Below are positions 25,156 to 48,266 of a DNA stretch of 64,000 nucleotides, piece by piece; position 1 is the stretch's first letter, and each line of letters starts with the position of its first letter. This DNA is from Thermoanaerobaculia bacterium (GTDB lineage Bacteria > Acidobacteriota > Thermoanaerobaculia > UBA5066 > Gp7-AA6): contig DATBFU010000067.1 in the NCBI GenBank assembly GCA_036558325.1, positions 5,536 to 69,535 on the forward strand. The letters run 5' to 3'. Both the position numbers and the translations under genes were made by a program. Below the pieces are notes generated by a model that saw nothing but the letters and a program-made list of their open reading frames with translations, was not told the DNA's origin and did not search any database.

Positions 25156-25174
25156 CGGCGGCGGGTCCAGTCGG

Positions 25175-28057: not shown

Positions 28058-28067
28058 CGCGCCGGAA

Positions 28068-28649: not shown

Positions 28650-28653
28650 CGCG

Positions 28654-29784
28654 TCAGGCGTTCAGTCCCTGCCGCAGCTCCCGGGACAGGATCTCGACGG
28701 CCGACCGCGTCCCGCCGGTCATCTTTTCCTTCCAGACGGTGTCGGTCTCGAAGCGGCGGTCGCCGATGGATTCGGCCCACGGCCGCAGGGCGGCGTCGAG
28801 CTCGCTCGCCGACCAGACGTCGCCGCCGCGGCTGCGGGTCATGGCGATGACGTAAGGCACCGTCCGGATGAACGCGCGCAGCGCCGTCGAGCTCTTGATC
28901 GAGTATTTGCGGCCCGCAAACGCCGCCGGGAAGGCCTTCGCCGCCGCCTTGAAATAATTGAGGAAGAATCGGCGTGCGTTCTCGCGGAACTCCCGGGCGA
29001 TCCGTCCGCCGGCGGCATCCATCGCCGCGAAAACGTCGCGCAGCTCGTCCGCGAGCGATGCCTGGGTGACCGCGCCCTTGCCGATGCCGAGCACCTTGAT
29101 CTGACCCTTCAGCGGCGAGTGCTCGTCCTCGTTCAGCGCGCGGATGATGTCGTGCGCGGCGGCGAGGTTCTCGTCGCGGTAGAGGCGCCGTCCGGAGAGC
29201 GAGATCAGATGCGAAGGGTTGAGCTTGGTGTGCTTGCTGTTGATCGTCACGAAGAGCTCGACGACCTGATCCGGCGTCAGGGAATCGAAGACGACGGCCG
29301 GGACCTGGAAGTCCTTCAGGTTGTGCTTCTCCGCGAGCTGGTGCAGGGCGAGCAGCCGGTGCTGTCCGTCGAGCGCCCGCAGGATGCCGGACTCGTCCGG
29401 CAGCTTCAAGGTGCCGATGTCGTTGCGCGAGGCCGAGGAGGTGAAGTCGAGCCGCTTCTCGGACACGAGCAGCACGCTGCCGGGAATCGCCGGGAGCGTC
29501 CCGGAATCCGCGCACTGGAGGTAGTAGGCGACGAGCTCCTCGATCTTCTTCTGGATGATGGGCCGCTGGAACGCCTGCTCGGAGGCCGCGATCTTTTTCT
29601 CCAGGAACTCCCAGTTCACCCGGACTTCCTTGCCCTTGCGCGCGTGGGGCCGCGTGGTTTGCGAATGCGGCCCGAAGGAGAGGACCTCGAAGCCGACCAG
29701 GGTCTGGAGGTCGGCGCCGGACAGCAGAGCCTCGTAGAACCGCACGCCGAATTGGTTCAGCCGGAGCGAGGGAACAGACAGCAT
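28654..29784 (-). CDS. DGQHR domain-containing protein (DndB-like, ParB/Srx superfamily)
   Basis: Motif RALDGQHRLLALHQL. Second ATG (29782-29784) chosen because AAGGGGGG lies 7 nt upstream and the first ATG sits inside a TATAAT box. The stop is 4 nt before the lemA start. Confidence 0.8.
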   Translation of the reverse strand: MLSVPSLRLNQFGVRFYEALLSGADLQTLVGFEVLSFGPHSQTTRPHARKGKEVRVNWEFLEKKIAASEQAFQRPIIQKKIEELVAYYLQCADSGTLPAIPGSVLLVSEKRLDFTSSASRNDIGTLKLPDESGILRALDGQHRLLALHQLAEKHNLKDFQVPAVVFDSLTPDQVVELFVTINSKHTKLNPSHLISLSGRRLYRDENLAAAHDIIRALNEDEHSPLKGQIKVLGIGKGAVTQASLADELRDVFAAMDAAGGRIAREFRENARRFFLNYFKAAAKAFPAAFAGRKYSIKSSTALRAFIRTVPYVIAMTRSRGGDVWSASELDAALRPWAESIGDRRFETDTVWKEKMTGGTRSAVEILSRELRQGLNA

Positions 29785-29847
29785 CCGGATCCCCCCTTGT
29801 CGCGGGCGCATTATATGTAAGGGCCCGGCGAGGGCCCGGCCGGATCG

Positions 29848-30192
29848 TCAGGGAGGGGAGATCGCCCGCCAGTCGGCCGCGCCGGCCATCCGTTCGTGCA
29901 TCTGGGACGCCCCGGCGAGGATTCCCCGCAGCTCGGCGGTCAGGAGCTTTTCGAGGTCCGGGAGGTTCGCCGGATCGGCGAGCGGAACCGAGCACTCGAT
30001 GGCCGTCTGGCCGAGCGAGGCGAAGAAGGGCGACGGCCGGCGGGTCCAGTCGGACTCGTTGCGCCGGTGCTTGGTCATCAGGAAGGCGGCGAGTCGGCGC
30101 TCATCCCAGGGCTCGATGAGCGTCCAGCGAAAGTTCGCCCGGGCGCCCTTGTGCTGCACTTCGGGCTTCTCCGCGGCCAGAGCGATCGACAT
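29848..30192 (-). CDS. hypothetical protein
   Basis: 114-aa ORF upstream of the DGQHR gene. AT-rich divergent promoter region upstream (30193-30235). No recognisable domain. Confidence 0.4.
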   Translation of the reverse strand: MSIALAAEKPEVQHKGARANFRWTLIEPWDERRLAAFLMTKHRRNESDWTRRPSPFFASLGQTAIECSVPLADPANLPDLEKLLTAELRGILAGASQMHERMAGAADWRAISPP

Positions 30193-30235
30193 AGATTTGG
30201 TTTAAAGATAGCATCCGCGTCAAAACGAGCCACCC

Positions 30236-31006
30236 GTGAAGGTCCATTTCGCGACGATTTTGGCGCTCGGGCTTCGGGTCTGGCTCGGGGCCGCCGGCAC
30301 CGCGTCGGCGGCGGAGGGGCCGGCCGATCGCGTCTATCCGTCCCACCTCATGGTGGATCAGGAGGTCGTGGTCGCCGCCCGGATCACCGGGATCGTGGAC
30401 GAGATCCTGGTCGATCGCGGGGCGTCCGTGGCCAAGGACCAGCCGCTCTGCCGCCTCGACGCCCGGGAGCTCGACGCCGAGGTCGCCGAGGCCAAGGAGC
30501 AGATGGACCTGAAGAAGCTCGAGCTCGAGCGGGCGAACCGGCTCTCCGACGGCAAGGTCCTTTCCGCGGCCGACCTCGACGAGAAGAAGGCCGAGTACCA
30601 GGTGGCGGTGGCGCAGTACGACCGCGTCCGGACCATGCGCGACTACACGGTGATCCGCGCGCCGTTCTCGGGCGTCGTGACCGAGAAATACGCGCGGGTG
30701 GGACAGAAGGTCATCGAGGATCGGGCGGAGCCGCTCTTCAAGATCACGGCCTCCGAGCCGCTCCTTGCGCGCGTGTACCTTCCCGAGGAGGATCTGCTCA
30801 AAGTGAAGCGCGGCGATCCGGTCGATGTGACCCTCGACCGGTTTCCGCGGGCGCGCGCGACCGGCACGGTCCAGTTTCTGAGCCCCACGGTCGACGCGGC
30901 GAGCGGCACCTTTCAGGTCGTCGTTCAGGTCCGACGCGACCCTTCGCTGCCGGAGCTGCGCCCCGGTGTGGCCGTGAAGGTGCACTTCCGCGGCTCGCGC
31001 AACTGA
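30236..31006 (+). CDS. HlyD-family periplasmic adaptor (membrane-fusion protein), short form with signal peptide
   Basis: GTG start. Signal MKVHFATILALGLRVWLGAAGTASA. Lipoyl-like and beta-barrel segments (VAARITGIVDEILVDRGASVAKDQPLCRLD...IRAPFSGVVTEKYARVGQKV). Confidence 0.75.
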   Translation: MKVHFATILALGLRVWLGAAGTASAAEGPADRVYPSHLMVDQEVVVAARITGIVDEILVDRGASVAKDQPLCRLDARELDAEVAEAKEQMDLKKLELERANRLSDGKVLSAADLDEKKAEYQVAVAQYDRVRTMRDYTVIRAPFSGVVTEKYARVGQKVIEDRAEPLFKITASEPLLARVYLPEEDLLKVKRGDPVDVTLDRFPRARATGTVQFLSPTVDAASGTFQVVVQVRRDPSLPELRPGVAVKVHFRGSRN

Positions 31007-31010
31007 GGGC

Positions 31011-31724
31011 ATGGCGGGCGGGCGCTCGTCGAAACGGCTGCGCGACGCGATCGATCGCGTCCTGATCCACGACATCAAGAACATGGGTTTCCGGCTGGAG
31101 ATGCTCCGGTCCAACCTGGACGAGCACTACGGCGAGCCCGAGTTCAAGCGCTCGGTCCAGGAGCTTCTGGCCGCGACCGTCGACCGGCTCGACAAGATCG
31201 TCGGACGCTTCGCGGCGCACGAGGACGCGGTCCTCATCAAGGTCGCGCTCGATCTGAACGCCCTGGTCCGCGACGTGGGCGACGCTCCGACGCGGCGCGG
31301 AGCGCGGCCGAGGCGCGCGGGAGGAGGCGAGCTCGGCCGGCTGTCTCTCGCCCTCGGAGAGGTGCCGCCGGTCTGGGGCGACCCGTACTATCTGCGCGAC
31401 GCGCTCGCGAGCCTCGTCGACAACGCGCTCGAGGCCGCCGGGCCGCCGGGCAAGGTTCTCGTGCGCAGCTTCGCGACCGGCAAAGGAGCCCGGCGGCGCG
31501 CCAACATCGAGATCATCGACAACGGCCCGGGCATGTCGGCCGACTTCGTCCGCGACCGCCTCTTCCAGCCGTTCCAGACGACCAAATCGGACGGCGTCGG
31601 CCTCGGCCTCTTCACGGCCAACCAGATCGTCCGCCACCACGGCGGGACCGTCCGTTTGAAGTCGCGCCCGGGGGAAGGCACGCTCGTCCGCCTGTCCTTT
31701 CCGGCGGTCCGGGCCGAGCCGTGA
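31011..31724 (+). CDS. sensor histidine kinase, cytoplasmic, no sensory or TM domain (HisKA+HATPase only)
   Basis: IHDIKN H-box. DNALEAA...IEIIDNGPGM...GVGLGLF are the N, G1 and G2 boxes. 237 aa. Confidence 0.8.
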   Translation: MAGGRSSKRLRDAIDRVLIHDIKNMGFRLEMLRSNLDEHYGEPEFKRSVQELLAATVDRLDKIVGRFAAHEDAVLIKVALDLNALVRDVGDAPTRRGARPRRAGGGELGRLSLALGEVPPVWGDPYYLRDALASLVDNALEAAGPPGKVLVRSFATGKGARRRANIEIIDNGPGMSADFVRDRLFQPFQTTKSDGVGLGLFTANQIVRHHGGTVRLKSRPGEGTLVRLSFPAVRAEP

Positions 31725-33097
31725 CGGCCGCCGAGGAACTGCCGCGGATCCTGATCGTCGAGGACGATCCCTTTCTCCTGGATCAGCTCCGTTTCGCGCT
31801 CTCGGGCCGGTTCGCCGTCACGGGAGCGCGCGACGCGACCGAGGGACGGGCGCATCTGGCGGGCGAAGCCGACGTCTATCTCTTCGACCTTCGCCTGCCG
31901 CCGTCCCACACCGTCGAAGAAGGCTTCGGCCTCCTTCGGGAGGTCCGGCGGCGCGACCCGGACGCCACGGTAGTCGTGATGTCCGGAGAGACCGAGCGGC
32001 GCGAGGCCCTGCGTGCGGTCGAGCTCGGCGCCTTCGACTTCTTTCGCAAGCCGGTGGACGCGGCCGAGCTGCTCGTCATCCTGACGCGCGCCCTCGAGCG
32101 CCGCCGTCTCCTCGCCGAGAATCGCACCCTGCGTCTGGAGACGAAGGCGCCCGGCCCCTTCGACCGGCTGGTGGGGGAGAGCTCCGTCATGCGCCGGCTC
32201 CTCGACGAGATCCGGCGGCTGGCGCCTTCCGACGCCACGGTGCTCGTCGTCGGCGAGAGCGGCACCGGCAAGGAGCTCGTCGCGCACGCGATCCACGACG
32301 GAAGCCCGCGCGCGAAACGTCCGTTCGTGGCCGTCAACGCCGCGGCGCTGCCGGAGGCGCTCGCCGAATCCGAGCTCTTCGGGCACGAGAAGGGAGCGTT
32401 CACGGGGGCCGTGTCGTCGCGCCCCGGCCGCTTCGAGCTCGCGGCCGGCGGAACGCTTTTCCTCGACGAGGTCGGGACGCTCTCGCCGGCGATCCAGGCG
32501 AAGCTCCTGCGCGCCATCGAGTCCCGTCAGATCGAGCGGGTCGGCGGACAGCGCACCATTCCGGTGGATCTGCGGCTCGTCTCGGCGACCAACGAAGACC
32601 TGGACGGCGCCGTCGCCCGCGGGAGCTTCCGCGAGGATCTCTATTACCGGATCAATACCGTGCCGATCCGAATTCCGCCGCTCCGCGAGCGGCTGGAGGA
32701 TCTGGAACCCCTGTCGGCGCACTTCCTCGCGAAGTACGGCGAGCGGCACCGGCGGCCCGGCCGGCGTCTCGGTTCGGGCGTCCTCGAGCGCCTGCGCCAG
32801 CATCCCTGGCGCGGCAACGTGCGGGAGCTCGAGCACGTGATCGAGATGCTGGTGCTCTTCTCCGACCAGGAGGAGATCGGTCCGGAGGACCTGCCGCGCG
32901 TGCTGCGCGACCGGGCGGGCGCGGCGTCGGGCCGACCAGCCGGCGGCCTGCCGTTCGCCAGGGCCGTCGAGGAGTTCGAGAAGAGCCTTCTCGCCCAGGC
33001 GATCGCCGACGCGGGAGGGGTCAAGGCCGAGGCCGCCCGAAGGCTGGGACTCGACGGCAACCAGATCAAGTACCTCTGCAGGAAATACGGCCTCTAG
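31721..33097 (+). CDS. sigma-54-dependent Fis-family response regulator (NtrC-type: REC + AAA+ + HTH)
   Basis: GTG overlaps the HK stop. ILIVEDD...D(54) REC, GESGTGKE Walker A, GAFTGA sigma-54 contact motif, C-terminal Fis HTH. Confidence 0.9.
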   Translation: MTAAEELPRILIVEDDPFLLDQLRFALSGRFAVTGARDATEGRAHLAGEADVYLFDLRLPPSHTVEEGFGLLREVRRRDPDATVVVMSGETERREALRAVELGAFDFFRKPVDAAELLVILTRALERRRLLAENRTLRLETKAPGPFDRLVGESSVMRRLLDEIRRLAPSDATVLVVGESGTGKELVAHAIHDGSPRAKRPFVAVNAAALPEALAESELFGHEKGAFTGAVSSRPGRFELAAGGTLFLDEVGTLSPAIQAKLLRAIESRQIERVGGQRTIPVDLRLVSATNEDLDGAVARGSFREDLYYRINTVPIRIPPLRERLEDLEPLSAHFLAKYGERHRRPGRRLGSGVLERLRQHPWRGNVRELEHVIEMLVLFSDQEEIGPEDLPRVLRDRAGAASGRPAGGLPFARAVEEFEKSLLAQAIADAGGVKAEAARRLGLDGNQIKYLCRKYGL

Positions 33098-33109
33098 CCG
33101 GGCGCCGGG

Positions 33110-33135
33110 GTTGAAGAATTCAACCGCCGGTTGAA
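33110..33135 (+). promoter_or_regulatory. putative enhancer (UAS) for the NtrC-type activator: GTTGAA-N3-TTCAAC inverted repeat plus a second GTTGAA
   Basis: gGTTGAAgaaTTCAACcgccgGTTGAAaaatc lies about 120 bp upstream of the sigma-54 promoter. An AT-rich bendable spacer (33140-33215) lies between. Confidence 0.35.
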
Positions 33136-33228
33136 AAATCTTTCTCTTTGACCGCTGATGGAGGTCCCGGCAATCTATGAAATCATTTCTTTTCAAAGGT
33201 TTGGATGAGGCGTCGCAGGCGCCGGCGG

Positions 33229-33245
33229 TTGGTCCCAACCTTGCG
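33229..33245 (+). promoter_or_regulatory. sigma-54 (RpoN) promoter, -24 GG / -12 GC
   Basis: TTGGTCCCAACCTTGCG fits TGGYRYR-N4-TTGCW with exact GG-N10-GC spacing. It lies 33 nt upstream of the AAGGAGGG RBS and the ATG at 33278. Confidence 0.55.
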
Positions 33246-33277
33246 ATATCGGCTGTCAGAGCAAGGAGGGAACTGAA

Positions 33278-33805
33278 ATGGCGAACGAAGTGAGAATCAA
33301 GCTGACGGACGAGCAGAAGGCGAAGATCAAGGAAGCCACGGGCAAGGACATGCCGGAGATCCGGGTCGGCAGCCTCGGCGACAACCCCGCCCTCTCGGCG
33401 AAGACGGTCGCCCCGCACGCCTCGGCGCGCAACATCCACGCCGCCCGTAACGTCCAGGCGGCCCGTAACGTCCAGGCGGCCCGTAACGTCCAGGCGGCCC
33501 GCAACGTCCAGGCGGCCCGCAACGTCCAGGCGGCCCGAAACGTCCAGGCGGCGCGCAACGTCCAGGCCGCCCGCAACGTCGCGGCGGCGAAAAGCATCTC
33601 GGCAGCCAAGAACATCGCGGCAGCCAAGAACATCGCGGCGGCCAAGAACATCTCCGCGGCCAAGAACATCACGGCCGCCAAGACGGTCTCCCCGCGCAAC
33701 ATGGCCCGCAACCTGTCGGCCCGCAACGCGACGCGCAATCTCTCGGCGCGCAACGCGAGCCGGAATCTGTCCTCCCGCAACTCGACGCGCGGCACGACCA
33801 AGTAA
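33278..33805 (+). CDS. repeat protein of unknown function: about 45-aa N-terminal region followed by about 14 tandem hexapeptide repeats ([RK]N[IV]xAA) and 9-mer RNxxRNLSA repeats rich in N-x-S/T
   Basis: Strong RBS and ATG. 18-bp perfect and near-perfect DNA tandem repeats from about 33443. Sigma-54 promoter upstream, rho-independent terminator downstream. No homolog recognised. Confidence 0.7.
   Translation: MANEVRIKLTDEQKAKIKEATGKDMPEIRVGSLGDNPALSAKTVAPHASARNIHAARNVQAARNVQAARNVQAARNVQAARNVQAARNVQAARNVQAARNVAAAKSISAAKNIAAAKNIAAAKNISAAKNITAAKTVSPRNMARNLSARNATRNLSARNASRNLSSRNSTRGTTK
33443..33790 (+). repeat. in-frame tandem repeat tract (14 x 18 bp units GCCCGYAACGTCCAGGCG / GCCAAGAACATCGCGGCR, then 27-bp units)
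   Basis: The first three units are identical; later units drift. Entirely coding within 33278..33805. Confidence 0.85.
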
Positions 33806-33827
33806 CCTCGCGCCACCGGATCTTCGA

Positions 33828-33858
33828 GCGCCCCGCCTCGGCGGGGCGCTTTCTTTTT
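33828..33858 (+). terminator. rho-independent terminator (GCGCCCCGCC-tcg-GCGGGGCGC + TTTCTTTTT)
   Basis: Perfect 9-10 bp GC stem followed by a U-tract 22 nt after the repeat-gene stop. The stop codon of the convergent gene lies within the T-tract. Confidence 0.65.
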
Positions 33859-36080
33859 CACCAGAGGACGGTCTGGAGCCAGCGCTTCAGGACCCGGAAC
33901 GTGCTTCCGAGGACCGAGGCGCGGGGCCCGGAGATCTTGGCGAGCCCCGTCATTCCGGGCCGGAGCGAGCGGTCCGCGTTGTCGAACTCCGCCCGGGCGA
34001 CGAATCGGTCGGGACGAGCCGGCGGAGCGGACGGGTCGGCGGTGGACGAGGGCGTCGCGGGATGCTCGAGCGTCGCCGCCGAGACCTCGACGATCCGTCC
34101 ATGGGCGGGCCGAAGCGGCCGGCCCGGCAGCATGGCGGAGACCTCCTCGCCGACCTTCACGTCGTCGAGACGGCGTTCCGAGAAATCCAGGTCGGCGCGG
34201 AGCTTCCGCAGGTCGCCCACCTCGGCGAGCATCGTTCCGGCCAGGACGTGACGGCCGCTCCAGTCGGCGGTGCGCGCCGTCAGCACGGTCCCGGCGATCG
34301 GGCTGCGGACCACGAGCCTTTCCTGGCGGGCCCGATCGCTCGAGAGCTCCGATTCGACCGAAGCTCCCCGGCGCTCCGCCGCATACGCCAGCGCCGGATC
34401 GCTTTCGCCGCGCGCACGGTTCGCCTCCTTCTCGAGGTACCCGCGCTCGGCCGAGAGCTCCCGTCCGCGCGAAGCGAGGGCCGGGCTCGCGAGCCGAAAG
34501 ATGGGCTGGCCGGCCGCGACGACGTCGCCTTCGTTCGCCAGGACCTCGGCCACGACGGCGTTCTCCGGAGCTTCGAGGCGCGCCTCGGTCGAGGCCCGCA
34601 GCCGGATGTCGGTGCGGACCTTGCGATGCGTCCAGGGCACGAGGAGAACGACCGCGAGAAGAGCGACGCCCGCGAGCAGAGGCTTCCGGCTGCGGCTGGA
34701 CATGATGAGGTCCTTCTTGTCGAGATAGAAGAGACGGCCCGTCCGCGTCACGAGCCGGACGCGTTTGCGGAAGAGCCGCAGCAGCGTCAGGACCAGAAGC
34801 AGGACGGCGAGATTCGGGAAGTATTTCGAGTAGAAGTTGTAAAAGAGTCCGCCGATGAACGCCATCACGACGCCGATGTAGGCGAGCGCGAGCGGAGCGT
34901 AGATCCAGTAGATGCGCCGCTTGCGCCGCGAGGCCTCGGGGATCTCGACGGGCAGTCGCAGCACTTTCGCCTGGAAAAGGGCGCCGAGATATCGGAACGA
35001 CTCCTCCCGAAGCTCGGGGATCTCGAGGACGCTCGAGAGCGCGTAGTAGCCGTCGATCTTGATGAGCGGGTTGATGTTGAAGAAGACGGTCGACGCCCCC
35101 GTAAAGAGCATCGTCTTGTAGGCGAACTCGTTCAGGAAGCTGTCCGGATACGACACGACCCAGAGGAACGTCGCGGCGAAACAGATGAAACCTTCGATGT
35201 AGATGCCCGCGGTCGTGACCCAGAGCCGGTGCCATTTGCTCTCGAAGAGAAGCGAATCCGTCGTGTCGCAGTAGAAGGCCGGCGTGAAGTACAGGAGCGC
35301 GATGCCGATGTCGTGCACCTCGCCCCCGTAGAACTTCGTCGTGTAGGCGTGGGCGAACTCGTGGATGCATCCGATGATCGAGAGCAGGAGGAAGAACTGG
35401 ATCGCATCGAGCAGCGGCTTCTTCAGAAAGGCGTAAAGCTCGAGCGTGCCGGACCAGATCGGCTGCCAGTGCTGGACGAAGATGCCGACCGTCCAGAGCA
35501 CCGCGAGGCACCAGACGAGGACGACCGGAGGCGTCCAGATCCAGCGCACGTATTTCGCCGTGCGCACGAGGAATCGCTCGGGATCGAGCACGTGGAAAGG
35601 AATGAAGAAGATGTTGCGGCCCTCGGCCTTCTCCTCCGCGGCGCGCTGGCGCGCGGTCTTGGCCCGGGCGAGCAGCTGGAGGTTGCGTTCGGCCACGCCC
35701 TGCTCGATGAGGTCGACCTTCCGGAGCATTTCCTCGAAGTCGAGGACGAGCGTCGCCGAGATCTCGTCCCGCGGGAACTCGCGCCGGTAGTCCTCGAGGA
35801 TCTCCGTTCGCGTCCGTGTGCCGTCGAAGAGCTGGATGAGGCCCCACTCGGCGTCCGAGAAGTTGTAGTACTTGATCGTCTCGGGGTTCTTCACCACCCA
35901 CGTGACTTCGCCCATCTGGACGACGCGGCGGATGACGAGGTCGCCTCGGAGGGCGGGCCGGTCGCCGGCGGCGCCGTGCTTTTCCGCGAGCGCGGCGGCC
36001 GCGTCCCCCGTGCGGGCGGCGAGGAGGCCCCCGGGCCGCGCGCTCAGGGCAGGAGCGGCCAGACCTTTCTCCAGAGCCAT
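33858..36080 (-). CDS. tri-domain fusion: PqqD-like RiPP recognition element + S2P/M50 intramembrane zinc metalloprotease + HlyD-like periplasmic adaptor domain
   Basis: N-terminal PALRGDLVIRRV...YNFSDAEWGLIQLFDGTRTRTEILEDY is PqqD-like. HEFAH zinc motif in a TM helix and NPLIKIDGYY (S2P NPDG-type motif). C-terminal TM then the lipoyl/beta-barrel region (VVAEVLANEGDVVAAGQPIFRLAS...VVRSPIAGTVL). No stop between domains. ATG 36078-36080 overlaps the upstream gene by 37 nt; alternative ATG 35915. Confidence 0.7.
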   Translation of the reverse strand: MALEKGLAAPALSARPGGLLAARTGDAAAALAEKHGAAGDRPALRGDLVIRRVVQMGEVTWVVKNPETIKYYNFSDAEWGLIQLFDGTRTRTEILEDYRREFPRDEISATLVLDFEEMLRKVDLIEQGVAERNLQLLARAKTARQRAAEEKAEGRNIFFIPFHVLDPERFLVRTAKYVRWIWTPPVVLVWCLAVLWTVGIFVQHWQPIWSGTLELYAFLKKPLLDAIQFFLLLSIIGCIHEFAHAYTTKFYGGEVHDIGIALLYFTPAFYCDTTDSLLFESKWHRLWVTTAGIYIEGFICFAATFLWVVSYPDSFLNEFAYKTMLFTGASTVFFNINPLIKIDGYYALSSVLEIPELREESFRYLGALFQAKVLRLPVEIPEASRRKRRIYWIYAPLALAYIGVVMAFIGGLFYNFYSKYFPNLAVLLLVLTLLRLFRKRVRLVTRTGRLFYLDKKDLIMSSRSRKPLLAGVALLAVVLLVPWTHRKVRTDIRLRASTEARLEAPENAVVAEVLANEGDVVAAGQPIFRLASPALASRGRELSAERGYLEKEANRARGESDPALAYAAERRGASVESELSSDRARQERLVVRSPIAGTVLTARTADWSGRHVLAGTMLAEVGDLRKLRADLDFSERRLDDVKVGEEVSAMLPGRPLRPAHGRIVEVSAATLEHPATPSSTADPSAPPARPDRFVARAEFDNADRSLRPGMTGLAKISGPRASVLGSTFRVLKRWLQTVLW

Positions 36081-38464
36081 CGGGCGGGCTTGCGCAGGAG
36101 CAGCGTCGCGATGCTTCGCCGGCCGGCCCAGACCTTTCCCGTGCCGACCATTCCCGTCTTGAGCGCTCCGCCCGGGTTCTCGGCGCGGACCTCGGCGATG
36201 AGGAACCGGTTGTCGCCCTCCTCCCGGACGCGGGCGCCGAGGCGCATCACCGAGCCCGGGAACGTCCGCGTCGGATACGGGTTGATCTTCAGGGCGACCC
36301 GCTGCCCGACGGCGACGAGCGCCGCGTCCGCCTCGGGCACGGCGACCTCGGCCGTGACGGTGCCCGCGTCGGCGACGACGGCAAGCTCGTCGCCGCGATG
36401 AAAGAACTGGCCGACCCGCTCCTCGATCCGCGGCGTCACGATGACGCCGGAGGCCGGCGCGGTCAGGCGCGTTCGCGCGAGCTCTTCCTTCGCGAGGGCG
36501 ACGCGCGCGTCGAGCTCGTCGCGCCGCGACTGCGCCTCGAACATGCGGGCGGAATCGCCCGCCTCCCGGTAGCGCGCGACGTCGCTCGAAGCGATCGCAA
36601 GGTCCGCCTGCGCGTCGGCCAGGCGCGCCGCGTACGCCTCGTCCTTGAGCGTCGCGATGACCTCGCCCGCGGCGACGTGGTCGCCCTCGTGCTTCTGCAC
36701 CGAAGCGAGGACGCCGTCCACGCCGGCCGTCACCGAGCCGCGCGAGGCCGGGCGGACGCGGGCCGGCCCGGCGATGCGCAGCCGCCACGGAACGACACAG
36801 AGGAGCAGGGCGGCCGCGAGGCCCCCGATCCAGACCGCGCGGCGGCGCTTCGGAGCCTCGCCGAGCGCACGGCGTTTGGCCGCGAGCGGTTTCCAGAAGC
36901 CCACGAGCGGCACCTGGCGGTAGAGCTGCGCGTTGCGGACGGCCACGGTCGCCTGGTTGACGAGGATCTGGAGCAGGTCGCGCGTCTCGCCGTCGAAGAC
37001 GAGGGGATCCCTGCTCTCGAACGCGAGCACGCCGAGCTTGCCCTCCTCGTCGGCGAGAAGGGCGGCATGAAACGAGCGCAGGCCCGTCTCCTCGAAGACG
37101 GCGCGGAACTTCTCTTCGGTCTCCGGACGGTCCGCCGTCAGCGCGCCGTCGGGCGTCTGGGTCACCGAGACGTTTTGGCCGGAGAAGAAGACCCACTGGA
37201 GCAGCTCCTCGAGCCGCTTGACCTCGGGCTTCGAGCGGTCGACCTCGTTGGCGCCGGAGATCGCGCCGAGCCGCATCTTTCCCTTCTCGAGGATACCGAT
37301 CGCGCAGCGGTCGTACGTGATGAGCGCCGCCGTCGCGTTGACGATCGTCTGCATGACCTTGTCGAGATCGAGGGTCGCCGTGATCTCCCGGCTCACGGCG
37401 AGAAGGGCGTCGAGCTCTTCAACCTTTTTCTCCGCCTCGTGCTGGCGCGCGGTGCGCAGCGCGCGGACGGCCTGCCGCGCGACGTCCTGGAGCAGCTCCT
37501 CGTCCTCGGGCGCGAACTCGGGATGTCGCCCGCGCTTGTTCGCGAGCACGAGCGCTCCGACCGAAGCCTGCTCCTCGATGAGCGGCACGGCCAGGACGGA
37601 GCGGATCGGGTAGCCGTCGACCTCGGCGGCCAGAGGATCGTCGTCCGGGATCCGATTCCTCCGCAGCGCGCTCTGTTCGGCCAGGACGTCTCCGGCGATC
37701 GACGCGCCGACGGCTTCGGGCGCGGGCGAGATCTCGTAGTTGTCGTTGATCGCCGTCGCGGCGAGGGTCGCGTCGTCGCCCGAGAGGAGCCAGAGCGATC
37801 CGGTCTCAGCCGTCGCGAAGTCGACCGCCTTGCGGACGATCAGCGCCGCGAGCTCCTGCGGCACGATCGTGCCCCCGAAGGCCTTCGAGAGGTCGTAGAG
37901 GTTCGTGAGCCGCTCGATGGCGCGGAGCATCCCGACGGTCTTGCGCTCGGCGCGCAGGGCCCGGCCGAGCGCCGGCGCCGCGTCTTCGAGAAAGCCCGAG
38001 AGCCGCGCGAGCGCCGCATCGGGGTCCTGGCGCCGCCGGAAGAGGAGCACGAGGAGCGCGACGACGAAGCCCTCGGCTTCGAGGGGTAGAGCCACCGCGA
38101 TCTCGGTCCCCGCGGGCATCCCGCGGAGGAACGGGTCGTCGGCCGCGGCGAGCTCCGAGCGCTCGAGCGCGATCGCATGTCGGTCCCGGACGAGCTCCCA
38201 GGCCACCCCCGAATCCCGCGGCACCGAGCGTCGGCGGAAGCCGTCGGTGCCCTCGCCCGCGTTGCCGATGCACAGAAAGAGGGGATGAACGGTGTCCGGC
38301 GCCCAGAGGAGCGCGCCGTCGGCCTGGGCCATCTCGGCGCTCCACCGGGCCGCCCAGCCGGAGGTCTGAGAGAGGTTCTCGCAGAGCGCGAGCTCCGCGA
38401 GCGCCGAGACGGGGCGTTCCCCGTCGTGCCCCTCCGGGCCCCCTCCCTCCGGCTCGTCGGGCAT
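36044..38464 (-). CDS. three N-terminal GAF domains + TM + HlyD-family adaptor domain protein
   Basis: AGGAGA RBS. Three GAF-like blocks in residues 1-520, one TM (AVWIGGLAAALLLCVVPW), then the HlyD lipoyl/beta-barrel region (GVDGVLASVQKHEGDHVAAGEVIATLKDEAY...RLTAPASGVIVTP). Confidence 0.75.
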   Translation of the reverse strand: MPDEPEGGGPEGHDGERPVSALAELALCENLSQTSGWAARWSAEMAQADGALLWAPDTVHPLFLCIGNAGEGTDGFRRRSVPRDSGVAWELVRDRHAIALERSELAAADDPFLRGMPAGTEIAVALPLEAEGFVVALLVLLFRRRQDPDAALARLSGFLEDAAPALGRALRAERKTVGMLRAIERLTNLYDLSKAFGGTIVPQELAALIVRKAVDFATAETGSLWLLSGDDATLAATAINDNYEISPAPEAVGASIAGDVLAEQSALRRNRIPDDDPLAAEVDGYPIRSVLAVPLIEEQASVGALVLANKRGRHPEFAPEDEELLQDVARQAVRALRTARQHEAEKKVEELDALLAVSREITATLDLDKVMQTIVNATAALITYDRCAIGILEKGKMRLGAISGANEVDRSKPEVKRLEELLQWVFFSGQNVSVTQTPDGALTADRPETEEKFRAVFEETGLRSFHAALLADEEGKLGVLAFESRDPLVFDGETRDLLQILVNQATVAVRNAQLYRQVPLVGFWKPLAAKRRALGEAPKRRRAVWIGGLAAALLLCVVPWRLRIAGPARVRPASRGSVTAGVDGVLASVQKHEGDHVAAGEVIATLKDEAYAARLADAQADLAIASSDVARYREAGDSARMFEAQSRRDELDARVALAKEELARTRLTAPASGVIVTPRIEERVGQFFHRGDELAVVADAGTVTAEVAVPEADAALVAVGQRVALKINPYPTRTFPGSVMRLGARVREEGDNRFLIAEVRAENPGGALKTGMVGTGKVWAGRRSIATLLLRKPARWLWRKVWPLLP

Positions 38465-38483
38465 GCGATCTCCTGATTTCTTC

Positions 38484-38819
38484 CTAGAAGCTCAGGACGG
38501 CTTTCTCCAGATCGTCATGAATCTCGAAGACCGAATCGAGCTTGGTCATCTCGAGGAGCTTGCGAACCTGGGGGCCGGCGTTCACGAGCTTCGTCTGTCC
38601 GCCTTCCTTCTGCGAGATGGTCAGCGCGCGCACGAGGGCGCCGAGCCCCGAGCTGTCGAGGAAACCGACCCGGCCGAGATCCACGAGCAGGTGGATGCGG
38701 CCGTCTTCCAGGAGATGGGTGACCGTTCTCTTGAAGTTGGACTCGGCTTCGCCGATGACCAGATCGCCGACGACGGTCAGGACCGTGACCCGCCCGTCCT
38801 CTCTCGTCGTGAGCTCCAT
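38484..38819 (-). CDS. STAS-domain anti-sigma factor antagonist (SpoIIAA-like)
   Basis: 111 aa. GFLDSSGLGALV with the conserved phosphorylatable Ser. 19 nt upstream of the GAF-HlyD gene. Confidence 0.85.
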   Translation of the reverse strand: MELTTREDGRVTVLTVVGDLVIGEAESNFKRTVTHLLEDGRIHLLVDLGRVGFLDSSGLGALVRALTISQKEGGQTKLVNAGPQVRKLLEMTKLDSVFEIHDDLEKAVLSF

Positions 38820-38904
38820 GAAAGCGGCGACATTATGTCGGAAACGCCCTTCTCGTCCAAGGCCCGCCGGACGGGCGCCGGAACTATGATCCGCCCGTGC
38901 GGCG

Positions 38905-39120
38905 ATGAAGTCGGCGCGGACCGCCGATCACGAGGTGGCGGAGGTCGTGCTGCGGCAGGAGCCCGCGGTCGGCGGCCGTGTCACGGTGCGCGGCCCCGTC
39001 GGCGCGGAGGGGGAGTGGATCGTGATCGACCGGCGGCCCGACCCGCACGGATGGCGCGTCACGGCGGTGCGTTGTCTCGCGGCCTGCCGGGAGCATTCTG
39101 GAGCCGACGACCGGACTTGA
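38905..39120 (+). CDS. questionable small ORF (71 aa) overlapping the 3' end of the tRNA
   Basis: ATG ORF in the 280-bp gap between the STAS gene and the tRNA. Overlaps the tRNA by 22 nt. No domain recognised. Confidence 0.15.
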   Translation: MKSARTADHEVAEVVLRQEPAVGGRVTVRGPVGAEGEWIVIDRRPDPHGWRVTAVRCLAACREHSGADDRT

Positions 39121-39174
39121 ACCGGTGACCTGCGGTTTACGAAACCGCTGCTCTACCGACTGAGCTACGTCGGC
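39099..39174 (-). tRNA. tRNA-Thr (anticodon CGU)
   Basis: Cloverleaf by hand. Acceptor GCCGACG/CGTCGGC, D-arm GCTC-AGTCGGTA-GAGC, anticodon arm GCGGT-TTCGTAA-ACCGC, T-arm ACCGG-TTCAAGT-CCGGT, encoded CCA. 76 nt. Confidence 0.9.
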
Positions 39175-39259: not shown

Positions 39260-42200
39260 TCAGTCGAACCGGACCGAGACGATCTTCGAGCAGCCCGGCT
39301 CTTCCATCGTGACGCCGTACATCGCGTCGGCGGTCTCCATCGTGCGCTTGTTGTGCGTGATCGCGATGAACTGCGTCTCTTCGGTCATGTCGCGCAGGAG
39401 CCGCGTGAACCGGTCGATGTTCGCCTCGTCGAGCGGCGCGTCCACCTCGTCCAGGATGCAGAACGGCGACGGCTTGTAGCGGAAGATCGCGATCAGGAGC
39501 GCGATCGCCGTCAACGCCTTCTCGCCGCCCGAGAGCAGCAGGATCGACTGATTCCGCTTGCCGGGCGGGTGCGCGACGATCTCGATGCCGGACTCGAGCA
39601 GGTCGTTCTCGTCGAGGAGACGCATCTCCGCCGTGCCGCCCTGGAAGAGGCGCGAGAAGACGCCCTTGAAGTTCTCGTTGATGGCCGTGAACGCGTCGCG
39701 GAAGCGCTCCGAGGACGTCGCGTTGATCTTCCGGATGGACTCCTGCAGCTCGGCCACGGAACGCAGCAGATCGTCCCGCTGCGTCGTGAGAAAGGCGAGG
39801 CGCTCCGTCTCTTGTTTGTGCTCCTCGAGGGCGAGCACGTTGACCGGCCCCATGCGTTCGATCGACGCGGCGAGCTCCGCGGCCTCCTGCTCCAGCGCCG
39901 CGAGCGCCTCCTCGGAAGCGTCCGCCGGCGGCGCGAGCTCCGCGGCCTCGGTCGAGAACTCCGTTCGCGCTTCCGCCTCGACGTGCTCGAGATCCGAGCG
40001 GAGCCGCGTCTCGGCGACTTCCGCCTCGAAGCGCGCCTCGCGCGCGGCGTCCAGGGACGCGCGGCGGGCCTTCGTCTCCTCCTCGGTCCGCCGGATGTGA
40101 ATGGCCGAGGCCTCTTCGGCGGTCGTGGCGGCGGAGAGGTCCTCCGCGCGGCCGCGGCGCTGTCCGAGATTCGAAGCCTGGCGGGCGCGGGCTTCCTCTT
40201 CCTCACGCGCGAGCTCGGCGGCCCGTTGGGCGATCCGATCTTCTTCTTCGCGGGCCTCGGCGAGACGGCGATCGAGGGTCCCGCGCGCTTCGATGGTCTT
40301 CTCCCGGGCGCTCTCCAGGGCCCGCCGGCGCTCGGCGGCGACCTCGGCTTCGGTACGGCGGTGGGCGAGCTCTTCGGTCGCCGCCATGGCGAAGGAGCGC
40401 GCCTCGGGCATCTGGAGGGAGAGCGCATCGGCCAGCTCCCGGAGCTTTGCTTCGCGCCCGGCACAGCGCGCCTCCTCCTCGAGCAGCTCGGCGCGGCGGC
40501 GGGCGAGTCCCGCGGCCTCGTCCCGGAGTGCCGCGGCCTCCGCGGTGAGCGTGTCCTCTTCCTTCTTGAGGCGATCGCGCTCCTCGCGGCGCTCCTCGAG
40601 GCGTCCGGCAAACGCCGACAGAGCTCCCGCGGCCCGCCGCTCGGCCTCGCGCCGGCCGGGAATCTCGGCGCTCCGGCGCTCGTGCTCCCGGCGCAGCTCG
40701 GCGGCTCGCGCCTCGGCCTCGCGCGCCTTCTCGCGCGACGATGCCGCCTCTGCGGCGAGGCTCTCGCGGTCGCGAGACAGCGCGAAGCTTCCGGCGACCG
40801 CCGCGTCGTTTCGAAAAGCGCCGTAGAGCGAGCCGCGCACGATCTCGCGCCGCCGCGTCACGAACGTCGTGCCGGGGCTCCGCCGGGAGCGCGCCGCCGC
40901 GTCCGCGAGGCTCTCGACGAACACGGCGGGCGGGAGCGCCGCGCGCTCGGCGGGCGAGAGATCCTTCCAGTTCTCCAGGACGGCCTCCCAGCCGCCGGTC
41001 TCGGGCGCCGCCGACGCCTCGGGCGCCCAGCCCGCGTCCACGAGCCGCAGCGCGGCGACGGTCCCGGCCGCCTCGAGCGCGCGCGCGCCGCCGCCCTCGA
41101 CTTCGACGAGGAGCGCCTCCGCGTCCCGATCGAGGAGCAGGTCGACGGCCTCCTCCCAGCCCCGCTTCGGCCGCAGGCGCGTCGAGAGACTCTCCCGCGC
41201 GCCGATGCCGGCGCTCTCGAGCGCGCGCCGGACGTCCGTCGCGCGGATCTCTCGCCCGCGCGCGACCTCGTCGAGCGCGGCGGCGCGATGTTCGATGCGT
41301 CCGAGAGCCTCCCGGGCCGCGTGGTGCTCTTCTTCGGCGGCGTCCCGCGCCGCGGCCAGACGCGCGAGCTCCGCCTCGAAGGCTTCGAGCGCGCGGGCCG
41401 CGGTCTCGGCCTCGGCGGACAGATCGCGCTCTTCCCGCGCGGCCGCCTCGAACGCGCGCTCGCGACCGTCGAGATCGGCGGCGATCTTGCCGGCGGCGCC
41501 CTCGAGCCGCGCGAGCGAGGCGACGACGCGCTCGGCGGACAGATCCACTTCGTGCCGCGCGTTGCGCGCCGCGACGCCCTCGCCGGCCGCCGTGAGCGTT
41601 TCCGTTCGGGCGCCCTCGAGCTCCGTCTCGAGCCCGGCGAGCGCGGCGGCCGCCGCCGAGGCCTTGCGGTCGGCTTCCTCGCGGTCGAGCGAGCGCGACC
41701 GCGCCTCGGCGATCGCGCGCTCCACGCGCTCCTCGATCTCCTGGAGCTCCCGAAGCGTCCGCGCGTGCTCTTCGCCGAAATCGCGGGTCTCGCGCGCCAG
41801 AGCCTCGCGCCGAGCGGCGAGATCGGCCGCGGAGCGGTGATTCGACTCGATCAGCGCCTCGTCGCGGCCGATGGCCGTCTCGAGCGCCGAGACGACGTCG
41901 CGCGCGCGTTCCCGAGCCGCGGTGGCTTCCGCGGCGTCGAGGCGCGCCTGCGCGAGCTCGGCCTCGCTGCGCCCGAGCGCGGCGGCGGCCTCCGCTTCCC
42001 GGTCGCGCCGCTCGTCGCGCAGCCGCGTCGCGTCGCCGACGGCGGCCGTGAGCCGGTCGTGGCGCGCGCGCAGGAGCGAAGACCGCTTGCCGCGCAGCGC
42101 CTCGGACTGCTCCTTGTAGCGCGCGGCGCGGGAGGCCTGGCGCTTCAACGACGCGACGTTGCGCTCGATTTCCGAGATGATGTCGGAGAGCCTCAGGAGA

Positions 42201-47001: not shown

Positions 47002-47008
47002 GAACGAG

Positions 47009-48220: not shown

Positions 48221-48266
48221 GGGGTTCGGAGATTGTGTCATATCGCGCTGGTGCATAATCCGCCGC

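Follow-up and report, generated by a model that had tools for sequence, protein, structure and literature searches.

We found that a soil acidobacterium of the class Thermoanaerobaculia carries a conserved seven-gene unit in which a membrane protease, a predicted peptide-leader-binding domain and an envelope-spanning adaptor are combined in one chain, and in which the gene for this fusion sits beside a sigma-54-type gene whose product has a conserved leader and rapidly changing short repeats. This arrangement looks like an undescribed way of processing, and probably exporting, ribosomal peptides. Cleavage, however, is inferred from homology, and export from domain content alone. We identified the unit in a window of 64,000 nucleotides (GenBank assembly GCA_036558325.1, contig DATBFU010000067.1, positions 5,536 to 69,535 of the forward strand); all coordinates below refer to this window.

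Gene content and transcription units

A sequence-only reading of the window had reported seven genes, a sigma-54 promoter and a 37-nt gene overlap, and had proposed a system that binds a peptide or protein, cleaves it in the membrane and exports it. We found each of these elements in place, and the observation is thus confirmed. All seven genes have a GC3 of 0.86-0.93. Gene A (30236-31006, +) encodes a small, 256-aa periplasmic membrane-fusion (MFP; HlyD/RND_mfp) protein with a Sec-type N-terminus and no lipobox; it matches HlyD_D23 and HlyD_3, and scores 151.7 bits against TIGR01730, above the cut-off of 94.9. Gene B (31011-31724, +) encodes a 237-aa cytoplasmic histidine kinase with an H-box (LIHDIKN) and a HATPase_c domain, but no transmembrane segment or sensor domain. 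Gene C (31721-33097, +) encodes an NtrC-type sigma-54 enhancer-binding response regulator with REC, Sigma54_activat (E = 1e-69) and HTH_8 domains. Gene D (33278-33805, +) encodes a 175-aa repeat protein without a Pfam hit. On the opposite strand, gene G (38484-38819, -) encodes a STAS protein, gene F (36044-38464, -) an 806-aa GAF-MFP protein, and gene E (33858-36080, -) the 740-aa fusion protein; the ATG of E lies 37 nt inside F, and the stop of F lies 37 nt inside E.

The best NCBIfam hits of B and C are the regulators PrsK and PrsR of PEP-CTERM/exosortase systems, in which, as proposed here, an enhancer-binding protein drives a gene for a small low-complexity protein from a -24/-12 promoter. 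Both scores fall below their cut-offs: B matches the C-terminal part of PrsK at 137 bits against 300, and C matches PEP_resp_reg at 415 bits against 502. B lacks the membrane and GAF sensor part of PrsK, D has neither a C-terminal PEP-CTERM sorting signal nor a transmembrane segment, and no exosortase was found among the ORFs scanned. The locus does not, therefore, qualify as a PEP-CTERM system.

To examine how the genes are transcribed, we searched for promoters and terminators. The sigma-54 -24/-12 promoter TGGTCCCAACCTTGCG (33230-33245, +) starts 48 nt upstream of the D ATG and is the only match to TGGY-N7-TTGCR in the 64-kb window. A single match in 64 kb is within chance expectation (mean 0.94). 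However, 73 of 74 orthologous D genes carry TGG-N9-TGC starting 43-79 nt upstream of their ATG, and tandem paralogues of D each have their own promoter. D thus has the promoter of a sigma-54-dependent gene and an enhancer-binding protein encoded immediately upstream, although dependence on RpoN itself was not measured. A candidate enhancer (33109-33135, no strand assigned) consists of the half-sites GGTTGAA, TTCAACC and GGTTGAA separated by gaa and gcc, with an inverted repeat at 33119-33135; the GGTTGA hexamer occurs in 53 of 74 D-upstream regions, and binding by C is inferred. D is monocistronic: an intrinsic terminator with an 11-bp stem, 9 G-C pairs and a T-run lies at 33826-33851 (+), between the convergent genes D and E. 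Sigma-70-like promoters precede operon A-B-C (30186-30214, +; TCGACA-17-TAGCAT) and operon G-F-E (38832-38859, -; TGGACG-16-CATAAT). Such sites occur only ahead of A, G and the tRNA gene; the three sites in 9.5 kb compare with 0.2 expected, and each lies directly upstream of a transcription unit.

The predicted domains of E and of the adaptors A and F

The sequence-only reading had assigned E a PqqD (RRE) domain, an S2P/M50 protease and an HlyD domain, and had named the failure of domain searches to recover them as grounds for rejecting its proposal. We recovered all three, though not all by Pfam. Pfam PqqD (PF05402) does not hit E at E <= 0.01, and a profile search of PDB sequences with the RRE region gave only chance matches. 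To ask whether the fold could be recognized from structure, we modeled this region with AF2. The model of aa 41-135 (35676-35960, -; pLDDT 80.5) is a cytoplasmic, PqqD-like winged helix of three beta strands and three helices. Its top six Foldseek matches are TbiB1 and the lasso-peptide B1 protein 6jx3, both solved with their leader peptides (probability 0.99-1.0, TM 0.65-0.74). The assignment is further supported by homology to the daptide RRE-peptidase and by precomputed PF05402 hits in several distant homologues; binding of the leader of the adjacent precursor was not assayed, and only co-occurrence is shown.

The membrane core of E, aa 184-450 (34731-35531, -), contains the site-2 protease motifs HEFAH (aa 240-244; 35349-35363) and NINPLIKIDG (aa 335-344; 35049-35078), both in hydrophobic segments. 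These HExxH and NxxPLxxxDG motifs are invariant in 15 homologues of 56-100% identity. The Pfam Peptidase_M50 model (PF02163) scores 26.1 bits, just under its gathering score of 27.2, while precomputed PF02163 hits are recorded for many close homologues, so that this score on its own does not settle membership either way. The AF2 model of the core was too poor to use in a structural comparison.

The C-terminal part of E, aa 484-739 (33864-34631, -), is a periplasmic adaptor with lipoyl, alpha-hairpin and beta-barrel domains, preceded by a transmembrane helix at aa 464-486. It matches HlyD_D23 and HlyD_3, and a Foldseek search with the full-length E model returned only adaptor proteins, with MexA, AcrA, MacA and ZneB at E about 1e-14; the resemblance includes a short alpha-hairpin. 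A, E and F all pass the Pfam HlyD thresholds, with the periplasmic side following from a preceding transmembrane helix or signal peptide, but E and F fall below the TIGR01730 cut-off. Unlike the tripartite-pump adaptors, these have no inner-membrane pump partner, and two are fused to other domains: E to a protease and F to GAF domains.

F was read from sequence alone as 3xGAF-TM-HlyD. We confidently detected only two GAF domains (aa 202-336 and 366-511), followed by a transmembrane helix (aa 542-564) and an MFP domain (aa 577-773). The N-terminal ~190 aa shows weak, degenerate GAF-like similarity (pairwise E = 0.004), and a search of the PDB with the N-terminal 198 aa returned nothing. G scores 70.7 bits against TIGR00377 (cut-off 53.45) and carries a DSSGLG phospho-serine motif, as in anti-sigma-factor antagonists of the SpoIIAA/RsbV type. 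No RsbW-type kinase or PP2C phosphatase is in the locus, which leaves the assignment of G to that type undecided.

The closest named family to the protease is that of the daptide leader peptidase MpaP (NF041824, daptide_HExxH). Residues 59-438 of E align to positions 17-363 of the 379-position model at E = 3e-46. The daptide protease is described as an RRE fused N-terminally to a site-2 protease that removes the leader peptide (PMC10036551), and it is encoded beside precursors with a conserved acidic or helical leader. The score of 158 bits is, however, below the 300-bit equivalog cut-off; a 260-aa periplasmic adaptor is fused to the protease; the block and its flanks contain no MpaB/C/D/M-type modification enzymes; and the host is diderm. 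In addition, D is a 175-aa charged repeat protein with its own sigma-54 promoter, ends in RGTTK and has a different leader, whereas daptide precursors are hydrophobic peptides of ~50 aa with an ELExMEAP leader and a C-terminal Thr. E would thus work like this family but is not a member of it. E also matches the YydH/LiaK epipeptide maturation metalloprotease (NF058609), an M50-type HExxH membrane protease of a ribosomal-peptide pathway, over aa 227-359 (E = 4e-11), at 43 bits against a cut-off of 225. Those systems use a radical-SAM epimerase and an ABC exporter, and their protease has no fused adaptor. Finally, in Enterococcus, the site-2 protease Eep generates peptide pheromones that end up outside the cell; the substrates there are lipoprotein signal peptides already in the membrane, export uses the separate ABC transporter PptAB, and neither an RRE nor an adaptor is present.

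Leader and repeats of D, and conservation of the block

D belongs to a family with a conserved leader of ~20-40 aa (EV[RK]IxLTxxQKxKI...EIRV) followed by hypervariable tandem repeats. The leader region of D, aa 1-40 (33278-33397, +), is MANEVRIKLTDEQKAKIKEATGKDMPEIRVGSLGDNPALS. It is conserved across more than 70 loci, with V5, L9, T10, Q13, I17 and E27 invariant. The core (33423-33790, +) is built of tandem 18-nt and 27-nt DNA repeats encoding about 9 ARNVQA-type units (8 exact), then AAKNIA-type units, then SARNxxRNL-type units; it has a net charge of +25 and no transmembrane segment, Cys or Trp. Across the family, repeat units are 4-21 aa, and the cores, of which 48 are basic, 19 acidic and 5 near neutral, differ even between close relatives. 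Searches of Pfam and NCBIfam with D leaders, and with the LEERIAP peptides described below, gave only low-complexity noise (EntB, collagen, HxsA4). A profile of the leader run against a set of 5.8 billion proteins returned only hypothetical proteins of 83 aa or fewer, some labeled Thermoanaerobaculia, and gave no wider distribution; repeat-induced assembly breaks and frameshifts probably contribute to this.

These repeats raise the possibility that D is a multi-core precursor: the RRE would dock D, and the protease, alone or with housekeeping peptidases, would cut the array into many copies of a 4-12-aa peptide that acts as a species-specific signal or antimicrobial, with the two-component system closing an autoinduction loop. 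Consistent with this, cores are near-perfect tandem copies of one short unit (PRANT about 30 times, AKPL about 25 times, GRAAGKSIA about 15 times), they diverge quickly while the leader stays fixed, as in multi-core RiPP precursors, and a two-component system and sigma-54 promoter are attached. However, no conserved cleavage motif flanks the units, whose length and chemistry vary freely; kinase B has no extracellular sensor; several distant systems have non-repetitive low-complexity cores; and the block contains no import or receptor gene. We therefore consider this reading unlikely.

To determine whether the genes belong together, we examined related loci with enough flanking sequence, in which E identity falls as low as 49%. 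G was present in 69 of 69 loci, F in 68 of 69, A in 63 of 63, and B and C each in 62 of 63. D was found by regular expression in 66 of 71; four of the five misses (loci L024, L028, L078 and L080) were found on manual reading of the gap. D lies between E and the NtrC-type gene in essentially every Thermoanaerobaculia locus examined. The absence of a conserved small-protein partner had been set in advance as a result that would count against the proposal, and these data go the other way. In contrast, the outer flanking genes (114-aa, DndB-like, LemA and M48) are retained in only 44-45 of 59 loci; because they are missing from about a quarter of loci that keep the block, we rejected them as parts of the system, and the seven genes are the conserved unit. 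Much of this evidence comes from a single bacterial class, where vertical inheritance inflates co-occurrence.

We asked whether more distant E homologues also have peptide partners. A profile of E finds 4,016 cluster representatives at E <= 1e-30 among 1.84 billion, and most of the best 150 are full-length fusions. Of nine distant loci sampled (L082-L090), eight (L082-L089) have one to four small ORFs with an L-E-x-L-E-E-R-I-A-P leader and low-complexity cores that are (GSK)n, (SK/SR)n, N/P/G-rich or D/H-rich; in seven these lie directly upstream of the fusion gene, and in L084 and L089 a FemAB-like gene lies between. A tenth, more distant locus (L081) repeats the GAF-MFP, E, D-like, activator, kinase and MFP block, with the GAF-HlyD gene preceding E, but lacks G. 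We considered homology between the D leader and the LEERIAP or daptide leaders, but the spacing of the conserved hydrophobic positions differs by one residue, and none is claimed.

Together, these results bear on a third possibility, that E, F and A are ordinary accessory adaptors of an efflux pump encoded elsewhere, with D an unrelated low-complexity neighbor and the synteny reflecting vertical inheritance only. Databases do name E an 'efflux RND transporter periplasmic adaptor subunit', and the outer flanking genes are also often conserved within the class. Nevertheless, the seven genes persist where the outer flanks do not, D keeps its leader and, in 73 of 74 cases, its promoter, unrelated lineages pair the same fusion with leader-bearing peptides, and E carries a predicted RRE and an intact protease active site. 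This explanation is very unlikely.

Proposed mechanism and its implications

Our data led us to the following hypothesis, which we favor with only modest confidence: the block is a self-contained unit for making, processing and probably exporting a ribosomal peptide. In this view, operon A-B-C runs from a sigma-70-type promoter and supplies B and C; C binds GGTTGAA-type sites and fires the sigma-54 promoter of D; and D is a soluble precursor with an N-terminal leader and a highly charged core. The cytoplasmic RRE of E would capture the leader, and its protease domain would cut the leader off or cut the core further. The adaptor domain of E would then assemble an AcrA-like tube, in which the translationally coupled F and the soluble adaptor A take part, and hand the product to an outer-membrane channel encoded elsewhere. 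The GAF domains of F and the STAS protein G would gate the machine or feed back on kinase B. What our analysis establishes is the domain content, the catalytic motifs, the RRE fold (from a predicted model), the conservation of the promoter and of the block, and the leader-plus-variable-core design of D. That C activates D, that D binds and is cut by E, that the product is exported and what drives this, and the roles of F, G, A and the histidine kinase are inferences, with no experimental datum for any step; the earlier phrase 'under GAF-STAS control' is conjecture. The interpretation offered by the sequence-only reading, that of a leader-binding RRE, an intramembrane protease and an MFP/HlyD adaptor acting together, is supported, and the leader-and-repeat design of D and the peptide partners of distant E homologues take it further.

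Several points count against this model. The Pfam M50 score of E is just below threshold, Pfam PqqD is not detected in E, and the AF2 model of the protease core is poor. In addition, we found no ABC, RND or MFS transporter and no outer-membrane factor in the block, in ten flanking ORFs scanned or in ten further large ORFs of the window, and none recurs in the sampled distant loci. The locus therefore does not constitute a tripartite efflux pump or type I secretion system, although such genes elsewhere in the genome are not excluded, and transport across the inner membrane has no identified motor; S2P proteases are not known to translocate hydrophilic chains of 100+ aa. D is hydrophilic and lacks a transmembrane helix, unlike classical S2P substrates. 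An alternative is regulated intramembrane proteolysis or signaling without export: D would stay in the cytoplasm as a disordered, hydrophilin- or LEA-like stress protein or a regulator, its level set by leader-dependent degradation by E, while the adaptor domains of E, F and A sense or scaffold the envelope and GAF and STAS relay the state to kinase B. In favor of this, no transporter or motor is present among the ORFs scanned; S2P proteases classically act in signaling; GAF, STAS, a histidine kinase and an enhancer-binding protein are all signaling parts; and D cores are Ala/Lys/Arg/Ser/Thr-rich with 9-11-residue periodicity, reminiscent of hydrophilins. On the other hand, three complete MFP domains with alpha-hairpins are hard to explain without an outer-membrane channel, the closest named relatives of the protease are leader peptidases of secreted peptides, distant systems consist only of small leader-bearing peptides plus the fusion protein, which is the layout of bacteriocin or RiPP loci, and hypervariable cores are typical of extracellular products. 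We regard this alternative as doubtful.

The leader and core design of D is that of a RiPP precursor, but the conserved block contains no modifying enzyme, and D is thus not a RiPP in the strict sense; some distant systems carry a FemAB-like gene. The logic of the proposed unit is shared with leader-cleaving bacteriocin and microcin exporters that have an adaptor (CvaAB-TolC type; PCAT plus HlyD-family protein): a leader-recognizing protease is physically coupled to an envelope-spanning adaptor, and the precursor genes lie next to it. In those exporters the protease is a C39 cysteine peptidase on an ABC transporter, acting on double-glycine leaders, whereas here it is an RRE-M50 metalloprotease, with no ATPase found among the locus genes or the 20 other window ORFs scanned. 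A match to a characterized system had also been named beforehand as a reason to abandon the proposal, and we found none: no curated Pfam or NCBIfam model describes the architecture. Literature searches on M50-HlyD-PqqD proteins, daptide M50 metalloproteases and RRE-associated peptidases with HlyD returned no papers, those on M50-HlyD precursors and on the EERIAP motif returned only irrelevant ones, and one on site-2 proteases, HlyD and RiPPs gave the daptide paper but no description of this architecture.

A bolder reading, possible but unlikely on present evidence, is that RRE-S2P-MFP fusions define a widespread, so far unrecognized route for exporting ribosomal peptides in diderm bacteria, in which one polypeptide recognizes a leader in the cytoplasm, cleaves it in the membrane and bridges to the outer membrane without a dedicated ATPase. 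Its cargo would be a new class of unmodified, genetically hypervariable low-complexity or tandem-repeat polypeptides whose function depends on bulk charge or composition, for example as matrix, surface, mineral- or metal-binding, or kin-specific agents. In Thermoanaerobaculia, this core would have been elaborated with a GAF-adaptor, a third adaptor, a STAS protein and a private sigma-54 regulon.

There is an annotation gap, with the fusions currently labeled 'efflux adaptor subunit' and their partner peptides matching no curated family. The RRE-M50-MFP fusion together with two leader motifs, EV[RK]IxLTxxQKxKI and LExLEERIAP, provides a concrete, testable handle for genome mining, and the hypervariable charged repeats offer a natural library of sequence-defined polyelectrolyte peptides with an unknown role in soil Acidobacteriota. 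If our reading is correct, the system would raise the question of how a hydrophilic chain crosses the inner membrane without an obvious motor, and would join the C39-ABC type and the signal-peptidase/Sec type as a third type of leader peptidase-exporter, built from a site-2 protease and a periplasmic adaptor.

Gene content and transcription signals of the locus

The window has about 69% G+C, and third-position G+C (0.86-0.93) picks out the real reading frames. Seven genes, which we term A to G, lie between 30236 and 38819, and we assessed the content of each with Pfam and NCBIfam. Gene A (30236-31006, +) encodes a 256-aa protein with HlyD_D23 and HlyD_3 domains and a Sec-type N-terminus, which scores 151.7 bits against TIGR01730 (cut-off 94.9). 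Gene B (31011-31724, +; 237 aa) contains only an H-box and HATPase_c, without a hydrophobic segment, and its best NCBIfam hit is the C-terminal third of PrsK, below cut-off. Gene C (31721-33097, +; 458 aa) encodes REC, Sigma54_activat (1e-69) and HTH_8 domains. Gene D (33278-33805, +; 175 aa) matches no Pfam family. On the opposite strand, gene E (33858-36080, -; 740 aa) contains Peptidase_M50 at aa 229-336, with a score of 26.1 bits that lies just short of the gathering score of 27.2, as well as HlyD_D23 and HlyD_3 at aa 496-677. Gene F (36044-38464, -; 806 aa) encodes GAF domains at aa 202-336 and 366-511 and a HlyD domain at aa 577-773, and the ATG of E lies 37 nt inside its end. Finally, gene G (38484-38819, -; 111 aa) encodes a STAS protein that scores above the TIGR00377 cut-off and carries a DSSGLG phospho-serine motif.

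The sequence-only reading had assigned three GAF domains to F. We found that the N-terminal 198 aa of F resemble the C-terminal half of the next GAF domain only weakly (E = 0.004) and match nothing in the PDB; this claim therefore reduces to two confident domains plus one probable one. E and F both end in a basic, Trp-containing amphipathic helix (33864-33935 in E, ...FRVLKRWLQTVLW; 36047-36118 in F, ...RKPARWLWRKVWPLLP), in which RW and the final W are invariant in E homologues. This helix, which A lacks, may be a shared membrane or partner contact.

The flanks consist of unrelated housekeeping genes. On one side, a tRNA-Thr(CGT) gene (39099-39174, -) with its own sigma-70-like promoter (39240-39212) separates the STAS gene from SMC (39260-42817). 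On the other side, a four-gene block (27086-30192, -) is transcribed divergently from A, with only 44 bp between the start codons, and comprises a 114-aa unknown protein, a DndB/GmrSD_N-like protein (385 aa), LemA and an M48 peptidase. A 699-aa ORF at 24971-27070 (+) with a good coding signature (GC3 0.84) has no Pfam hit at E <= 0.001. Other regulators and enzymes nearby, namely a Ser/Thr kinase fused to a universal stress protein domain, an FHA-HTH_8 protein and two adjacent ketoacyl-synthase genes (19645-21048, -; 43137-44249, +; 45862-48400, -), have no evident link to the locus.

We next examined the transcription signals. The sequence TGGTCCCAACCTTGCG at 33230-33245 has exact -24/-12 spacing and starts 48 nt before the D start codon. 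It is the only match to TGGY-N7-TTGCR in the 64-kb window; however, a single match is within chance expectation (mean 0.94), making conservation the decisive test. We found that 73 of 74 D genes in related loci, including both members of tandem D pairs, carry TGG-N9-TGC starting 43-79 nt upstream. About 100 nt further upstream of the promoter lie three GGTTGAA/TTCAACC half-sites (33109-33135), and the GGTTGA hexamer recurs in 53 of 74 upstream regions, making this a plausible enhancer for C. A strong terminator at 33826-33851 closes D, which is therefore monocistronic. The only sigma-70-like promoters in the scanned 9.5 kb lie ahead of A, ahead of G and ahead of the tRNA gene (3 found, 0.2 expected). 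The layout is therefore three units: A-B-C behind a sigma-70-like promoter; D, with its candidate enhancer, sigma-54 promoter and terminator; and, convergent to D, G-F-E behind a second sigma-70-like promoter.

Predicted domain architecture of protein E

To ask which proteins E most resembles, we compared it with the NCBIfam models. Residues 59-438 are closest to the daptide biosynthesis intramembrane metalloprotease (E = 3e-46, 158 bits, model positions 17-363 of 379), and E also hits the YydH/LiaK epipeptide protease, although both scores are below the equivalog cut-offs. The paper on daptides states that daptide clusters were found through RRE domains, and describes the daptide protease, MpaP, as removing the leader (PMC10036551). 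In an alignment of 15 homologues (56-100% identity), HEFxH (aa 240-244) and NxxPLxxxDG (aa 335-344) are invariant.

Sequence methods did not reveal the RRE: Pfam PqqD is not detected in E, and a sequence profile finds no RRE in the PDB. In contrast, AlphaFold models of aa 38-140 give three strands followed by three helices at pLDDT about 80, and the six best PDB matches to that model are the lasso-peptide leader-binding proteins TbiB1 and 6jx3_B, both solved with their leader peptides (probability 0.99-1.0, TM 0.65-0.74). Several distant homologues carry a precomputed PF05402 hit. The C-terminal 255 aa are modelled confidently as lipoyl, alpha-hairpin and beta-barrel domains, and match MexA, AcrA, MacA and ZneB at about 1e-14. 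Hydrophobicity and the positively charged loop at aa 438-466 put the RRE in the cytoplasm and the adaptor in the periplasm. Together, these results indicate that E is an RRE-S2P-MFP fusion.

Conservation of the seven genes and the design of D

We then asked how far the locus is conserved. E has at least 594 relatives in the protein collection; the best 120 are full-length and are named 'putative peptide zinc metalloprotease' or 'HlyD/RND adaptor', and the labelled ones come from Thermoanaerobaculia or Acidobacteriota. Of the species-representative genomes, 110 encode a relative. We fetched 80 loci (each designated L and a number below), all but one of which are labelled Thermoanaerobaculia or Acidobacteriota; the exception (L075) is labelled Acidithiobacillales but is otherwise typical of the Thermoanaerobaculia set, and is probably a binning error. 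Two MAGs each contribute two separate E loci (L008 and L056 from JBOGJN01; L038 and L073 from JBOGJK01), which could mean paralogous systems or mixed bins. Among loci with enough flank, tblastn finds G in 69/69, F in 68/69, A in 63/63, B in 62/63 and C in 62/63. The F-E overlap also recurs, for example as about 34 nt in L002. In contrast, the outer flanking genes are found in only 44-45 of 59 loci; the four-gene block divergent from A is present in about three quarters of related loci but absent from the rest, and we do not count it as part of the system. These data indicate that the seven genes, rather than the wider neighbourhood, are what is conserved.

Gene D, which lies between E and C on the strand of C in essentially every locus, is the key to the system. 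A regular expression found it in 66 of 71 loci, and reading the gap in four of the five misses showed a D gene with one leader substitution. The N-terminus of D is conserved (MA[NK]EV[RK]I[KQ]LT[DE]xQKAKIKxATGKxMxEIRVxSLGxNPAVS), with V5, L9, T10, Q13, I17 and E27 invariant in 22 diverse sequences. Short paralogues keep only the first ~20 residues, which points to EV[KR][IV]xLTxxQKxKI as the recognition core.

The rest of D is a tandem array whose unit differs from genome to genome: ARNVQA in the window, and elsewhere GRAAGKSIA, PRANT, AKPL, QATRA, KAMRAQ, GLREE, ALRDD, DLSAQ, ADLANS, DTSIESA and many more. Unit length ranges from 4 to 21 aa, and 48 cores are basic, 19 acidic and 5 near neutral. 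Their composition is 25% Ala, 12% Arg and 12% Ser; Cys and Trp are absent and aromatic residues are rare. Relatives whose E protein is 87-89% identical already have different units. In the window, the array consists of 18-nt and 27-nt DNA repeats with 75-89% matches, consistent with evolution by slippage, and D itself has a net charge of +25 and no transmembrane segment.

No Pfam or NCBIfam family matches the D leader, and all 72 database hits to it are unnamed proteins of 83 aa or fewer. This probably reflects assembly breaks in the repeats or a limit of the search. In two MAGs (L001, 12121-13839; L003, 13056-13727), frameshifts in the array carry the D reading frame through its repeats into out-of-frame sequence. 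The repeats appear to break or corrupt assemblies, so this gene family is probably systematically under-called.

Distant homologues and the proposed function

To investigate whether the same logic occurs in distant lineages, we searched with a profile of E and found 4,016 cluster representatives at E <= 1e-30 among 1.84 billion, most of the top 150 being full-length fusions of 680-820 aa. A search seeded with distant members returned proteins of about 700-1,250 aa, the named ones coming from Chthoniobacterales, Acidobacteria and unclassified bacteria. We fetched ten of their loci (L081-L090). L081 repeats the GAF-MFP, E, D-like, activator, kinase and MFP block without STAS, and its D homologue has the leader SVTIKLTDKQRTQIKSATG..EIRV and an (ASKSAL)n core. 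Eight loci (L082-L089) have one to four ORFs of 47-72 aa upstream of the fusion gene, with a FemAB-like gene intervening in L084 and L089. These small ORFs (L082 7683-7850; L083 7343-7783; L084 ~3083-3250; L085 5919-6858; L086 4547-5396; L087 6766-6909; L088 5732-5887; L089 4503-4682) share the leader L-x-[LIV]-E-x-L-E-[EQ]-R-I-A-P; for comparison, the daptide leader motif is ELExMEAP (PMC10036551). Their low-complexity cores are (GSK)n, (SK/SR)n, N/P/G-rich or D/H-rich, and include GSANPEGSANP and NPGNNNPGENN (N/P/G-rich) and DDDHDHDHDHHHDDDD. None matches a Pfam or NCBIfam family. In L090, we found no leader-bearing ORF.

One subtype, comprising the (SK)n-type systems, adds a FemAB-like gene and a related unknown protein (L082 10600-12332; L084 3514-4548 and 7177-8184; L089 4943-5977 and 8649-9656; L090 8828-10288). 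The FemAB-family product could add amino acids from aminoacyl-tRNA onto Lys. The unknown protein contains ...LILNNGSHRAYALR... and was read at 228 aa in L082, 335 aa in L084 and 125 aa in L090, where it is apparently cut short; the 335-aa gene at this position in L089 and a 350-aa unknown gene in the same position in L088 (8369-9421) were not read. This may be a modifying branch of the same superfamily. None of the ten loci has a recurring ABC, RND or MFS partner. The minimal recurring module is therefore one or more leader-bearing low-complexity peptides plus the RRE-S2P-MFP protein, to which the Thermoanaerobaculia version adds a longer leader, much longer cores, two further adaptors, a STAS protein and a private sigma-54 regulon. 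The conservation of the seven genes, the design of D and these distant loci disfavour the possibility that D and E are merely coincidental neighbours.

Our analysis directly shows the domains, motifs, fold, topology cues, promoters, co-conservation and precursor design. From homology to RRE-dependent leader peptidases, we infer that the RRE of E binds the D leader and that the M50 domain cleaves it. On the basis of domain content only, we further infer that the adaptor of E forms an AcrA-like conduit to an outer-membrane factor encoded elsewhere, to which F (whose reading frame overlaps that of E) and A (which is secreted) would contribute, and that the core leaves the cell. The weakest point of this model is translocation across the inner membrane: no motor is encoded in the locus, in the ten flanking ORFs scanned or in the other large ORFs of the window that were examined, and S2P enzymes are not known to pass long hydrophilic chains. 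Two rival explanations are that D is a multi-core precursor cut into unit peptides, and that the locus is an intracellular degradation or signalling circuit. That the GAF domains of F and the STAS protein G gate the machine, or talk to the sensorless kinase B, is conjecture.

Functionally, the system resembles leader-cleaving bacteriocin exporters (CvaAB-TolC type) and the daptide and epipeptide leader peptidases. By membership, E is an M50/S2P protease with an RRE and an MFP domain. It is not a daptide protease equivalog, as the score is too low, the daptide enzymes are absent and the precursor is different. Nor is this a type I or tripartite system, because no transporter or outer-membrane factor was found among the ORFs scanned. 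B and C are not PrsK/PrsR equivalogs, and D is not a RiPP in the strict sense, because the block has no modifying enzyme. We found no curated model that describes the RRE-S2P-MFP fusion or its precursors, and no paper in the literature searched, although this omits most subscription-journal papers and prior description cannot be excluded. Leader-dependent ribosomal-peptide processing and export is already known as a process, and we suggest that this locus represents a different version of it, built around an RRE-S2P-MFP fusion and leader-bearing low-complexity peptides.
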